The notes: generated from the sequence alone by a model not told the origin. A stretch of 32,000 bases of DNA from Methanococcus maripaludis (GCF_002945325.1 NZ_CP026606.1:510001-542000), one strand, 5' to 3'; positions 15,841 to 22,102 are shown, counted from the stretch's first letter. Program-made: numbers and translations.

Positions 15841-16107
15841 ATGACGTCCTTTAAAGAAAAAATTTTAGGAGCAATAGCATTTAGTGCTTTTCTAGCATTT
15901 CTAACTGCAATCATGCAATTTCCCGGAGTTCCCTCAGGATTTTGGGGAGTAATAATAAATTTCCTAACGGGTAATTATTATTTCTTTAATATGTTCAGTG
16001 CAAGTGCAACAAGCGCAGTTCATATTATTACTTTAGCATTTGTCCTTATAGATGACTTATTTTTACTCTATTTGGGCGTTGAATTCCTTGACGTATTTAG
16101 ATACTAA
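15841..16107 (+). CDS. Small integral membrane protein (about 3 TM helices)
   Basis: RBS AGAGGTACAATATG. Hydrophobic runs ILGAIAFSAFLAFLTAI, FWGVIINFLTG, AVHIITLAFVLIDDLFLLYLGV. Confidence 0.6.
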   Translation: MTSFKEKILGAIAFSAFLAFLTAIMQFPGVPSGFWGVIINFLTGNYYFFNMFSASATSAVHIITLAFVLIDDLFLLYLGVEFLDVFRY

Positions 16108-16154
16108 AATAACAATCAATTTTTAATTTTTAAAAAAGACATATGGTGATAAAA

Positions 16155-16388
16155 ATGGGAAATAAATCTGGTAAAACTAATATTAAGGATATTAAAGTTA
16201 CCAAAGAATCCGATTCAGGTAGAAATTTAGAGTTTAAAAACACCAAAACTGGTGAAGAGTTAAGCCGGGCTCAGGTCGTAAATAAAATAGAATCCGGAGA
16301 AATTACTGGTGCACACGTAAGAAAAGTAAATAACGTAAAAACTCCCTGTTCAAATCCTGATGGAAAGAAAAATAATAATTTAGGATAA
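16155..16388 (+). CDS. Small basic protein, possibly DUF3892-like
   Basis: The GGTGAT at 16145-16150 serves as RBS for ATG 16155 (MGNKSGK...). The pattern ..LSRAQVVNKIESGEI.GAHVRKV....P.SNPDGKKNNNL resembles the DUF3892 pattern as I recall it (..I..G..fy......yvrt..DG...DNL); tentative. Confidence 0.5.
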   Translation: MGNKSGKTNIKDIKVTKESDSGRNLEFKNTKTGEELSRAQVVNKIESGEITGAHVRKVNNVKTPCSNPDGKKNNNLG

Positions 16389-16573
16389 ATAATTCAAATT
16401 AAACTTTTTCATAAAAAAATTATTAATTTCTTTTTAATTTTTTAAAATAACAGGCATATCCTTTCTTTCAATCAAATTTAAAAAGAGTAATTTATGATAA
16501 GAATTATTGAAATTTAATGAAAAGGTTATTTTAAATTTAATTAGAAAATTTTTTCTTCAAATATTCGCCGTAT

Positions 16574-18757: not shown

Positions 18758-19072
18758 TCCAACACCAAAATCATACAATAAAAATTTTATTATTAAATTA
18801 TAATTTTAATAAACAAATTTTCCCGAAAAATTATCAATTAAAATATTAAAAAAACAATATTTAAAAATGTCGAAAAGTTTCCTCAAAAAACAGTAAATTA
18901 TCCTAAATCTTAAAAAACCTTATCAGCTTTAAAAATTAATAAACACTGTTTTCTACCAATTAAAATCCCAAAAAACATTATTTTAATCAAATTTAAATCG
19001 TTTAATTCTTTTCGGAAATTTTATATTTATGTGGGGGTTAATTTAGTTTAACCATATTATGAGGGATGATTA

Positions 19073-22000
19073 ATGAGTAGTTCAGAAGTGGGGCAAATAA
19101 TTAAAACTGCAATGGATTATGAATCAAATAAAAAGTACGTAGAAGAGCGGTTAGACTCCATTAAACCTTATTTTGAAAATACAAAACACATTTATCCATT
19201 AATTTTTGATTGCATATTCTCAGCAGCAGGTATACCCCCTTTTGCAGCGATAACCGTCGCTTCTTTAGACACATATTATAAATTAACGGAAAAAAATTCT
19301 GCGGCAGAAAAAACTGAAGAATTGTTAAACTCAATATATAATAAAACATTGAACGTTACAGATCCAGAACTTCAAAACTATATTCAAAAAATACATGAAA
19401 CATTAACTCAAGGTTTAAGAAAAATAGACAGTAGTTTGGGTGAACTTAACGATAATATTCAAACAGGTAACGAATACCAGTGTGAAATGACTGAAACGCT
19501 TAAGGAAATACTTAATGATTTAAAAAAACATGGTATGATCCACATAACCGAAAAAATAGATTCATCATTGGCTCAAAGTTATGATATCAGTAAATTAAAA
19601 GAGTCATATTACTCTGCAATTACCTCGGGTGGAGAATGGCTACCCATAATAAAAGACTTAGATATTAAAAGATCCCAGCTAGATAATGTTAAGGATTTAA
19701 TTAGAAGTGGAAACTGTGTAATTATAACAGGTAATTCGGGTGATGGAAAAACTGAGTTTATAAAAAGACTTTCTTATGATATGAAAGATGAGATGGACAT
19801 ATATGTTCAAAATACTCATTCATTAAATTTAGATAATGCCATTTATGAATTGAAAAAATTAACATCTGATAAAAGGATACTTTTGTGTATTGATAATGCA
19901 TCATCAATAAACAATTTGTGGGAAGCTATAGATCAAATCCCGTCGAATTTTTCAGTCATTATGGCCGAACAGAAAATAACATGGGATAATTATTTAGATA
20001 ACTTAAATCGATCATTACCCCACAATTTAAAAGAGATTAAATTAGAAATCACAAAAATTGATATTGAAAACTGTTTTTTAAAAGTTATCCCTAAAAGATT
20101 ATCCCATATTTGTGGAAGATTAGCAAATGGATTATATGAATCAGGCGTCAAAGGATCCATATCTCCTTGGATACTTATTGTAACGGGGATAAACAGTTTA
20201 AAACTGTCTCGGGATATGCGTAATGTATCATCAAGGAATATAAAAGCCAAAATAATTAATAATATCAATAATTATTTCAAAAAATCCAAAAATTCAGGTA
20301 AATTTTCGTTAATACTTCCAATAATGATTTTAAAATTATATGACATAGATTATTCAAAAAATATTTTTTATGAAATATATGGCCATAATTATCAGCAATT
20401 AAATGAATTAATGGATCACGGACATATAAAAATAGATTGTGATAAAATTACTACCTACCACCCAGCCATTTTGCTCCCATTTCTAAAAGATAATCTTGGA
20501 AACGATTTATTTTATGAAATAAAGAAACATCTTGATAATTATTTAAATAAAATTTTTAGTAAGGGGGAAAAATTAAGGTATCAAGATGTATTGTACCCCA
20601 TTGGTAGTAATTGCATACATAATACAAATAGGCTTAAGACAGGTTTTATCGACCAGATAAAATACGGAATTAAAATTTTAAAAAAGATTCCAGAATACCA
20701 GCTAGATAATAAAGTGTTAAAATTAATTTCTGAAGCATATTATAAATTAATGGATTATATTAACACTGAAAAATATCTAAATGATATTTTAAAAAATAAC
20801 CCTAATGATTATTATGCCAAATATAATTTAATAAACTTATATTTGGAAAAAGGCGAAATAAATAAATTAATCCAATCTTTTGATGAAATAAAAAAGTATC
20901 CTGATATTTATAAACACTACCCTGTAATTATGGATTTATATATCGGAAAAATACCTGCCGTGGAATTAATACAGTATTTAGAATTACTTTATGAAAAAGA
21001 TCCTAAAAATATGAACGTTGCAGCAGCCCTGTCCAATATGTATTCTTTTATATTAAATGAGGAAATGACCGATTATTATCTATCCAAAATAACAATTGAA
21101 AAGTTAAAACCTTCTGCAATCAGTAATGCTGTATCATCCTATTGTCAGATGGGAAACTATGAAAAAATTGATGAAGTATTAAAGAATTTAGAAAAAAATA
21201 ATAGTAAAAATATCAACTTATGTCGTGGATCTTATTATTTGTATAAAGGAGAATATCGGGAATATATATCGATTATTAATAACTTTTTAACGGATTATGA
21301 ACATGATATTGGTTTTAATTTACTAAATGTATCCATTTTATACCCCCTTATGGATAAATCTGCAATAAAATCGCTTGATAGACTAAAAAAGTTTTATGGC
21401 CTTAACGAAGTCTTAAAGATGGAGTATATGAAATATTACTCTAATTTTGGAAATTATACTGAAGCATTACGATTTTTTGAAGATATCATAACAGATTCTC
21501 CAGATAATATAGATGCTTATTCAGAAGTATGTTGGATGTATATAGATATGGGTAATTATCAAAAAGCGCTAGAAGTTTCCAAAAGAGTATATGAAAAATT
21601 CCCAAAAATTCCTGAAGTTATAATTAATCATGCTAAAATCAATGCAATTAATGGAAATATTTTGGAATCAAAAAAATGTTTAGATGAGTATATTTTGAAA
21701 TACGGCATTGATAGTTTGTCAATTAGTGAGATTACTCCAGTTTATTATGAATTAAAAGATTATGATAATACATTAAAATATGGATTAAAATTGGTAGATA
21801 CCCAAAATGACTCAGAAGTACTGATTTGTGTATCTGATAGTTATTACGAAAAGAAAAAATATAAAGAAGCACTTGAGTTAGTTAAAAAATTATTAAACTC
21901 AATACCCCTCCATATTGAAGGAAACTTGGTATGTGGAAAAATATATCATAAATTAGGCGATATTCCTGAATCAAAAAAATATTTGAAAAAGTGTAAAGAA

Positions 22001-22102
22001 TTATGTGATGAATTTAATAAACCTCGAATTAAAGCAAAACTAACTGAATATGTCGAAAAATATCCATTAGTAAATGTTTATAATTCTTCAATCATTTCAT
22101 AA
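19073..22102 (+). CDS. STAND-like P-loop NTPase with an N-terminal helical/hydrophobic domain and C-terminal TPR repeats (1009 aa)
   Basis: RBS GAGGGATGATTAATG. Walker A VIITGNSGDGKTEFIKRL. Walker B RILLCIDNAS. The C-terminal ~450 aa has 34-aa TPR-like periodicity (e.g. AYYKLMDYINTEKYLNDILKNNPNDYYAKYNLINLYLEKGE). The N-terminal ~200 aa includes the hydrophobic stretch IYPLIFDCIFSAAGIPPFAAITVASL. Confidence 0.75.
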   Translation: MSSSEVGQIIKTAMDYESNKKYVEERLDSIKPYFENTKHIYPLIFDCIFSAAGIPPFAAITVASLDTYYKLTEKNSAAEKTEELLNSIYNKTLNVTDPELQNYIQKIHETLTQGLRKIDSSLGELNDNIQTGNEYQCEMTETLKEILNDLKKHGMIHITEKIDSSLAQSYDISKLKESYYSAITSGGEWLPIIKDLDIKRSQLDNVKDLIRSGNCVIITGNSGDGKTEFIKRLSYDMKDEMDIYVQNTHSLNLDNAIYELKKLTSDKRILLCIDNASSINNLWEAIDQIPSNFSVIMAEQKITWDNYLDNLNRSLPHNLKEIKLEITKIDIENCFLKVIPKRLSHICGRLANGLYESGVKGSISPWILIVTGINSLKLSRDMRNVSSRNIKAKIINNINNYFKKSKNSGKFSLILPIMILKLYDIDYSKNIFYEIYGHNYQQLNELMDHGHIKIDCDKITTYHPAILLPFLKDNLGNDLFYEIKKHLDNYLNKIFSKGEKLRYQDVLYPIGSNCIHNTNRLKTGFIDQIKYGIKILKKIPEYQLDNKVLKLISEAYYKLMDYINTEKYLNDILKNNPNDYYAKYNLINLYLEKGEINKLIQSFDEIKKYPDIYKHYPVIMDLYIGKIPAVELIQYLELLYEKDPKNMNVAAALSNMYSFILNEEMTDYYLSKITIEKLKPSAISNAVSSYCQMGNYEKIDEVLKNLEKNNSKNINLCRGSYYLYKGEYREYISIINNFLTDYEHDIGFNLLNVSILYPLMDKSAIKSLDRLKKFYGLNEVLKMEYMKYYSNFGNYTEALRFFEDIITDSPDNIDAYSEVCWMYIDMGNYQKALEVSKRVYEKFPKIPEVIINHAKINAINGNILESKKCLDEYILKYGIDSLSISEITPVYYELKDYDNTLKYGLKLVDTQNDSEVLICVSDSYYEKKKYKEALELVKKLLNSIPLHIEGNLVCGKIYHKLGDIPESKKYLKKCKELCDEFNKPRIKAKLTEYVEKYPLVNVYNSSIIS

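Follow-up and report, generated by a model that had tools for sequence, protein, structure and literature searches.

The subject of this analysis is positions 15841-22102 of a 32,000 nt stretch of Methanococcus maripaludis DNA (GCF_002945325.1 NZ_CP026606.1:510001-542000), and "the window" below means that whole stretch. A gene for a large NTPase of the STAND type (signal transduction ATPases that have numerous domains) is transcribed here divergently from an operon of three membrane-protein genes. An earlier note on this DNA had joined the two into one candidate system, with the NTPase as the sensor and the membrane proteins as the effector. Our results point elsewhere. The region is rather likely to hold not one system but at least two independent units of a hypervariable island, with a conserved divergent promoter block between them. 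On this view the NTPase would be an antiviral STAND of Avs-like type made up of a single protein, and the operon would be autonomous. The best reading of the site is a defence hotspot, with different NTPase cassettes swapped behind one conserved promoter. The features of both units and of the block between them are as follows.

19073-22102, + strand: stand-alone STAND NTPase, 1009 amino acids (aa) (open reading frame; Pfam nSTAND_NTPase5, nSTAND3 and tetratricopeptide repeat (TPR) families)
19073-19657, + strand: N-terminal helical/coiled-coil domain of the NTPase, aa 1-195 (family alignment)
19193-19267, + strand: Pro/Gly-kinked hydrophobic hairpin, aa 41-65, kept in all five family members
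19730-19753, + strand: Walker A, GNSGDGKT, aa 220-227
19877-19900, + strand: Walker B, ILLCIDNA, aa 269-276
20453-20467, + strand: TYHPA motif (T461, H463 and P464 invariant), where STAND proteins carry the winged-helix histidine
20654-22012, + strand: TPR-like array, approximately aa 528-980, predicted ligand sensor (Pfam TPR_19, TPR_14, TPR_2, ANAPC3, ARM_TT21_5th)
18810-19065, no strand: conserved divergent promoter block, junction of cassette exchange (strain alignments)
19020-19027, + strand: TATA box of a predicted methanogen-type BRE/TATA (B recognition element and TATA box) facing the NTPase, CGGAAAT-TTTATATT (TATA scan)
18858-18865, - strand: predicted TATA-like box facing the operon (TATA scan)
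18293-18778, - strand: operon gene 1, small polytopic membrane protein, 161 aa from TTG (18778) or 154 aa from ATG (18757)
16772-18265, - strand: operon gene 2, 497-aa protein
16574-16771, - strand: operon gene 3, transmembrane (TM) peptide, 65 aa, or 59 aa from ATG at 16753

All the open reading frames that had been described were recovered where the earlier note had placed them, and the N-terminal hydrophobic segment, GNSGDGKT, ILLCIDNA and the TPR-like repeats were all located in the 1009-aa protein. Open reading frames this long are unexpected by chance in DNA of 25-30% G+C, and each of the main genes has homologues elsewhere. With the ATG at 18757 as the start of operon gene 1, the divergent gap of 315 bp (18758-19072) is right; the longest open reading frame begins at the TTG at 18778. 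The gaps of 27 and 18 nt between the operon genes were also found as described.

The operon recurs in three other loci. Locus L011 (GCA_014207325) encodes an identical 497-aa protein, and 8527 bp of it are 98.9% identical to window positions 10509-19028. This shared stretch covers the genes for a PI-PLC and a P47-like protein, two small genes that converge on the operon, the operon itself and the intergenic region. Past the TATA box, L011 carries genes for a 437-aa AAA_15/21 ATPase, which matches the PADLOC models HEC-01A/AbiLi/PDC-M07A, a 167-aa protein, a DUF2254 membrane protein and a winged-helix protein, in the place that the NTPase has in the window. Locus L001 (M. maripaludis GCA_013761135) lies at the same chromosomal site as the window, with flanks that are 97-98% identical and an operon that is 64% identical in nucleotides and 48% in amino acids. 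Its divergent gene encodes a 518-aa AAA_15/DUF3696 ATPase (PADLOC PDC-M55A/NsnB/AriA-like) and is followed by a 303-aa gene. In L003, a Logan contig, the operon is followed by SoFic. Because other strains keep the operon and the promoter region but carry different ATPase genes, the operon was taken as a unit separate from the NTPase.

The converse comparison gave the same picture. No operon homologue was found at the loci of any of the four NTPase relatives (L004-L007), and the NTPase gene is solitary in all of them. Non-co-conservation, which had been set beforehand as the refuting outcome for a joint system, was found both ways: the operon occurs without the NTPase (L001, L011) and the NTPase relatives occur without the operon.

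These data bear directly on the earlier proposal that the NTPase sensor and the divergent three-gene operon effector form a single defence or signalling system. Divergent transcription from a 315-bp gap, the core of which is conserved between strains, speaks in its favour, and abortive-infection effectors are often membrane proteins. Yet the neighbourhood of the 497-aa protein, which the note had proposed to examine for conservation with the NTPase, holds other ATPases both beside the identical operon allele in L011 and beside the divergent allele in L001, and the operon is missing from all the loci of NTPase relatives. Nor do the two sides have an adaptor domain in common: comparison of the NTPase N-terminal profile with each operon protein profile by hhalign gave probabilities of 0.2-0.3%, with no shared adaptor (EAD/Death-like) domain, and BLASTP of the NTPase N-terminus against the operon proteins detected no shared domain. 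The NTPase also has its own candidate N-terminal effector domain, as in single-protein Avs. We therefore give the joint system very little chance of being right.

The region between the two units was conserved far better than the DNA around it. The promoter block is 85-93% identical between the window and L001, and the DNA on both sides falls to approximately 40%; the first 27 nt of L003 also match the block. In a three-way alignment of the window, L001 and L011, the sequence is common through the TATA box, immediately after which L011 departs. The window and L001 stay alike for 35 nt further and part approximately 8 nt before the start codons. From this alignment we conclude that three unrelated NTPase cassettes have been plugged in behind one promoter; they start 8-78 nt downstream of the common BRE/TATA. 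A structured RNA in the block was considered and rejected, as Rfam gave nothing and the folding z-scores were +0.58 and -1.48.

Two features of this junction could be read as a functional tie. The divergent partner is a defence-type P-loop NTPase in all three loci with the promoter side visible, and the promoter block keeps 85-99% identity while both sides vary. On such a reading the operon and promoter would form a fixed docking platform, serving as a common membrane effector, gate or scaffold for whichever NTPase occupies the slot (the STAND-TPR protein or either ABC-type AAA_15 ATPase). We consider this distinctly improbable. The slot ATPases match PADLOC models of HEC-01, PDC-M55, AbiL and PARIS type, which marks them as relatives of those systems; these are listed with one or two genes and are not known to include such an operon. 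In a provirus and in a bacterium, relatives of the NTPase work, or are at any rate maintained, with no operon present. Moreover, swapping beside a conserved anchor is the normal signature of a defence hotspot, for which no functional link is needed. The hotspot reading accords with flanks that are 97-99% identical around three different slot contents among conspecific strains; in it, the operon would stay put while the gene across the promoter block is exchanged.

The NTPase itself was assigned by several searches. Its best Pfam match was nSTAND_NTPase5 (PF25199; 45.8 bits versus a cutoff of 34, E 7e-12, aa 189-308), and nSTAND3 (PF20720) also exceeded its cutoff (28.3 versus 27.2 bits). A PDB profile search with the N-terminal 520 aa and four relatives gave EfAvs5 (9jap_A, a SIR2-STAND protein) as the best match, with an E value of 1.8e-9, over the NTPase and the helical region. 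Foldseek with the AlphaFold2 (AF2) model of the NTPase, which is confident in the NTPase core alone, returned EfAvs5 (9jap), Avs4, the plant NLR protein RPP1 and SAMD9 amid generic AAA+ folds. Residues G220, S222, G223, G225, K226 and D274 are invariant in the five-member family alignment. The T-x-H-P motif (aa 461-464) lies in a low-confidence helical/beta-hairpin region, and the alignment with EfAvs5 reaches profile position 492; its winged-helix assignment is by position only. The NTPase is a true STAND with intact Walker A and B motifs and a C-terminal TPR sensor array, as the earlier note had supposed from its sequence, and EfAvs5 is the best solved structure for it.

The family around this protein is very small. 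HMMER, run exhaustively over 1.84 billion representative proteins, yielded 1415 matches, nearly all of them to TPRs only. Just four shared both the N-terminal and the NTPase parts, which gives a family of five with the window protein included. These relatives come from another M. maripaludis strain (the closest, at 30% identity), a Fervidobacterium metagenome-assembled genome and two metagenomes. From N- to C-terminus all five have in common a Pro/Gly-broken hydrophobic stretch of 25-27 aa (YPLIFDCIFSAAGIPPFAAITVASL in the window), a coiled-coil-like helix of approximately 100 aa, the P-loop, hhhhD[DN], T-x-H-P and TPRs. The relative at L004 has genes for minor-tail, Dit and virion proteins to one side; to the other lie small early-type genes and a DNA polymerase exonuclease gene. 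On account of these neighbours it was taken as an accessory gene of a tailed M. maripaludis provirus. Its database model begins 44 codons late, and the full open reading frame of 853 aa (7869-10430) restores the hydrophobic hairpin. A 108-aa multi-TM gene (L004 7368-7694) is divergent from it; its sequence is unrelated to that of the 161-aa gene of the window.

Other searches for relatives added little. A word-indexed protein search with the NTPase found only the query itself, TPR words having probably swamped the candidates, and the same kind of search with the five-sequence alignment of the N-terminal and NTPase parts gave no match. In tblastn searches of phage and plasmid collections with the NTPase and the 497-aa protein, there was no match but one marginal match of a Vibrio megaplasmid to the P-loop region. 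The completed scans of genome, metagenome and viral contig collections with alignments of the 497-aa protein, the 65-aa peptide and the NTPase also gave no match.

In Avs proteins the sensor is C-terminal, the NTPase sits in the middle and the effector is N-terminal, and some of these effectors are pore-forming membrane proteins (PMC13001434). No N-terminal effector of the known Avs1-5 types (nuclease, protease, SIR2) was detected in the NTPase with Pfam. The segment at aa 41-65 is the sole hydrophobic one in the protein, with none after aa 65, and we infer that the N-terminal domain with this hairpin probably acts on the membrane as an effector. If the protein works as Avs1-5 and Avs7 do, its TPR array would bind a viral protein, and NTP-dependent oligomerisation of the NTPase would follow. 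The clustered N-terminal domains would then drive their hairpins into the membrane, the integrity of the membrane would collapse and the infection would be aborted. An antiviral role is indirectly supported by the position of the NTPase in a slot that other defence-type ATPases occupy in sister strains, and by the prophage-borne relative.

The same hairpin could instead be a constitutive monotopic membrane anchor, in which case the NTPase would patrol the membrane and act via NTP consumption, sequestration or a partner. A hairpin of approximately 25-27 aa with central Pro/Gly suits a re-entrant anchor better than a pore. Avs5 has been reported at early infection vesicles (bioRxiv 10.1101/2025.07.08.663546), and the membrane-anchored NTPase Tmn arrests infection without lysis (PMC13001434). 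On the other side, no enzymatic domain is present in the N-terminal 190 aa, which leaves the hairpin as the only visible effector, and there is no conserved neighbour that could be the partner. We take a pure anchor seriously as an alternative but rate it as unlikely, and continue to favour the hairpin domain as the effector of a single-protein STAND.

Several results weigh against this interpretation of the NTPase, or against its separation from the operon. The second residue of Walker B that follows the invariant aspartate is N in the window NTPase and one relative and D in the other three. The N-terminal region of approximately 195 aa matched no Pfam family, giving coiled-coil noise only, and the AF2 model is unusable there, with a pLDDT (predicted local distance difference test) below 50 over the domain. 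The hairpin, at 25-27 aa and with a Kyte-Doolittle mean of 1.4-1.9, is moderately hydrophobic and too short for two full spans. PADLOC, which the earlier note had proposed to run, did not recognise the NTPase with any Avs model in version 2.0, and only weak matches to Csx1, SspF and mad8 were obtained. As for the separation, the operon sample is small, with three alleles in four loci (the window, L001, L003 and L011), and a conserved shared promoter block taken alone is compatible with co-regulation of both sides.

The three operon proteins were characterised separately. Gene 1 encodes approximately four hydrophobic segments, in agreement with its earlier description as a 4-TM protein, and conservation of its product is confined to the C-terminal half. 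The 497-aa protein, previously described as polytopic with a large soluble domain, was found to have this layout. Its N-terminal tail is rich in N-X-S/T sequons, all its hydrophobic segments lie within aa 44-141 and correspond to approximately three TM helices, and its C-terminal 350 aa or so are all-helical, soluble and predicted to be cytoplasmic. The motif NNSS is invariant in its alleles, and the exterior tail is probably glycosylated, as judged from the sequons. A 45-nt tandem duplication (18134-18223) doubles the sequon-rich peptide NNSSEIVSNVST at the N-terminus, which is present in a single copy in the other two alleles. Gene 3 had been called a 2-TM peptide; one clear TM segment was confirmed, but the second stretch is amphipathic, so that two TM segments is a generous count. 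This peptide is the best conserved of the three products (54-65% aa).

The operon proteins are as hard to place as had been thought. All three, and also the 88-aa product of one of the convergent small genes, are without a family in Pfam, NCBIfam, PHROGs and PADLOC. DUF2070 was rejected as a compositional match to the 497-aa protein, since it reached 17.4 bits versus a cutoff of 30, in two of three alleles and in the TM region only. An AF2 model of this protein built from three sequences had a mean pLDDT of 64.5, with 70-90 in the C-terminal domain. In PDB and BFVD, Foldseek matched the model to nothing but designed or generic helical repeats, with TM scores of at most 0.34, so no fold was assigned, and a PDB profile search came back empty. 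The protein is unrelated to the DUF2254 protein of L011 and to a 360-aa protein encoded beyond the NTPase in the window. Among 5.8 billion proteins it has only two other alleles, with 48% identity in L001 and 45% in L003. A small TM protein and a 59-65-aa peptide flank the 497-aa gene in these two loci as well, and for this reason the three genes are regarded as a conserved unit. They appear, from their sequences, to specify an autonomous membrane complex that is conserved but fast diverging. A role in membrane-level exclusion or defence is our best guess, made from the constant company of defence genes.

The wider setting includes four further features.

15841-16107, + strand: 88-aa protein with hydrophobic segments, gene converging on the operon
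16143-16388, + strand: 81/77-aa basic protein (16 K/R versus 9 D/E), gene converging on the operon
22078-23442, - strand: 360-aa protein and 90-aa winged-helix regulator, in the swap slot with the NTPase here and not with the NTPase relatives
24818-24904, - strand: tRNA-Ser(GCT), the 3' end of which is the right-hand boundary of the strain-variable island

The two convergent genes were present as the earlier note had described them, one of their products being basic, and this one does belong to a family (Pfam DUF3892, E 3e-8; phrog_11939, E 3e-18). Both genes occur in L011 and are absent in L001 and L003; they are not part of the conserved operon unit.

To delimit the island, the same chromosomal site was retrieved from six other M. 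maripaludis strains (L012-L017) via the sequence of a neighbouring DEAD-box helicase. The window is approximately 96.5% identical to these strains, and in all six the identity is lost at 24797-24816, which is the 3' end of tRNA-Ser. Past this point the content differs from strain to strain: two strains carry integrase-bearing elements (L015, L016), and other occupants are a Schlafen/AlbA_2-HATPase gene, an FRG-domain gene or plain housekeeping genes. As homology with the six strains stops at the tRNA 3' end, everything to the left of tRNA-Ser, all the studied genes included, was assigned to the strain-variable island. The site is a tRNA integration hotspot. The island takes up 24.8 kb or more from the start of the window, and its left end lies beyond that start. 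No att-type repeat of the tRNA-Ser 3' end was found within the window. The G+C content is 24-30% at 15-24 kb of the window and 30-38% in the first 8 kb, where the restriction-modification (RM) genes lie.

The description of this island as rich in defence genes held up. Its part in the window contains type I RM genes and a PDC-S18-like gene, together with an EVE-domain gene, a TBP (TATA-binding protein) gene and several toxin-like genes, and the allelic islands contain defence ATPases. Over the window and the other operon loci, the enrichment comprises type I RM, PDC-S18, HEC-01A/AbiLi-like, PDC-M55A/NsnB-like and SoFic genes.

This setting has to be weighed against a last alternative, in which neither unit is defensive. 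The operon would then specify a variable part of the cell surface or envelope, such as a glycosylated surface protein on which diversifying selection acts because it is a virus receptor, and the NTPase would serve as a TPR-based scaffold or regulator. The sequon-rich tail of the 497-aa protein with its invariant NNSS would suit such a role. So would its divergence: the alleles differ by approximately 52% in amino acids between conspecific strains with flanks that are 97-98% identical, and at the nucleotide level the operon diverges far faster than the flanks (64% versus 97% identity). The label 'Flp pilus assembly protein TadD', which one database gives to an NTPase relative, stems from the TPR repeats. 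A surface component of this kind is nevertheless hard to reconcile with the rarity of the operon, with three alleles among the billions of proteins searched. Neither the operon nor the NTPase was found within 10 kb of tRNA-Ser in the six other strains, and both are set in an acquired low-G+C island. The NTPase has no DNA-binding or enzymatic output domain of the kind typical of STAND regulators, and its closest relative is a prophage accessory gene. We hold a non-defensive role for both units to be very improbable, and regard two separate units in a defence island as the better account.

Some other genes of the island deserve mention. The slot holds two paralogous small winged-helix genes of HTH_34/PadR-like type (22078-22350 and 23533-23820; 39% aa identity), and genes of this small winged-helix kind also go with the variable cassettes of L001, L011, L012 and L015. 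Regulators linked to the cassettes are a possible role for them. Directly upstream of the type I RM genes lies a DUF5655 protein gene (2049-2927) with a match to PDC-S18 (E 2e-96), a candidate defence family of PADLOC. The TBP gene (175 aa, Pfam TBP E 6e-46) stands beside the EVE-domain gene at 8986-10032 on the - strand. L001 and L011 lack both genes at the matching position, and the TBP gene therefore looks like an accessory copy.

The toxin-like genes (57-1202, 1156-1884, 11525-13021 and 13332-14579) form a set directed at membranes or lipids. Their products are a protein with a MACPF/perforin domain, a member of the endonuclease/exonuclease/phosphatase family, a PI-PLC-X phospholipase C whose C-terminal part holds three tandem repeats of 52 aa, and a protein resembling Clostridium P47/OrfX that carries a C-terminal TM helix. 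L011 shares the genes for the PI-PLC and the P47-like protein, which L001 lacks. A 222-nt direct repeat, 97% identical (11261-11482 and 13087-13308), lies on both sides of the PI-PLC gene and suggests that this gene was inserted or duplicated by recombination.

Two 136-aa paralogues with 72% aa identity (10857-11267 and 23987-24397) lie at the two ends of the most variable stretch, in the window as in L001. In L011 a partial copy, from the 3' end of the 136-aa gene, lies at 2325-2402 beside an extra 891-aa HD-CE/HATPase_c_3 gene. The paralogues may have served as recombination anchors. Neither the 136-aa nor the 95-aa flank protein had a database record when looked up by its exact sequence. 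Further to the right, a 182-aa integrase fragment within 29832-31230 is kept in all strains examined. The adjoining SBP_bac_3 solute-binding gene is split into two open reading frames in the window (30472-30918 and 30958-31230) and is an intact 248-aa gene in other strains; it is probably a pseudogene in the window strain.

The locus reveals no new multi-gene sensor-effector system. Its value lies in the parts. Antiviral STANDs are well studied in bacteria and barely in archaea. Here a rare family has one member in a defence slot of the chromosome and another in a tailed provirus, and since the host is a methanogen open to genetics, the family can be tested directly. The locus also offers a clean case from nature in which the exchange of cassettes can be followed to the nucleotide, and its BRE/TATA sequence could anchor the mining of further archaeal defence genes. 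The operon, for its part, is dark matter: a conserved, fast diverging unit with no detectable relatives outside Methanococcus.

In comparison with known hotspots, such as those of P2/P4 prophages and tRNA-linked islands, the site has the conserved flanks, the variable defence-rich slots and the start at a tRNA 3' end. Unlike the usual hotspots, the window has its swap junction inside a promoter and an orphan membrane operon as a fixed neighbour.

For the NTPase, the closest known family is Avs5, represented by EfAvs5 (9jap). Avs5 combines SIR2, nSTAND3 and TPR/Sel1/PPR repeats (bioRxiv 10.1101/2025.07.08.663546). The two are alike in the tripartite layout, the nSTAND3-type NTPase, the TPR-like C-terminal repeats and the single gene. 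Unlike Avs5, however, the window NTPase is without the SIR2 NADase and has in its place a helical domain of approximately 190 aa with the hydrophobic hairpin; its best Pfam match is nSTAND_NTPase5 and not nSTAND3, its host is an archaeon and its family is tiny. It was not filed as Avs5 because the effector differs and the annotation hidden Markov models give no match. Judged by its sequence, it would be an Avs5-like engine and sensor with a different front end.

A likeness to Tmn (YobI family) and KAP proteins is found in the single large polypeptide, the combination of a P-loop NTPase with hydrophobic helices and the defence role (PMC13001434). Tmn has two TM helices inserted in its P-loop domain and KAP has four TM helices, whereas the hydrophobic segment of the window protein lies 155 aa upstream of Walker A, in front of a STAND-type NTPase. 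It was therefore not assigned to Tmn/YobI or KAP, there being no TM helices in or around its P-loop domain.

A parallel in concept may be drawn with the membrane-acting effectors of STAND and NLR proteins, such as the pore-forming Avs, in which a repeat sensor and an NTPase switch would likewise be coupled to membrane insertion by N-terminal helices. Plant CC-NLR (coiled-coil nucleotide-binding leucine-rich repeat) resistosomes and fungal HeLo/HET-S-type domains are examples of membrane-acting N-terminal effectors. The N-terminal domain of the NTPase differs from pore-forming Avs, CC-NLR and HeLo/HET-S proteins in that no sequence or structure similarity to them was found. Given that some bacterial STAND effectors are stated to be pore-forming (PMC13001434), a membrane-acting hairpin domain would be a new version of a known theme, and the hairpin-bearing N-terminal domain could represent a new class of membrane-inserting STAND effector of archaea and their proviruses.

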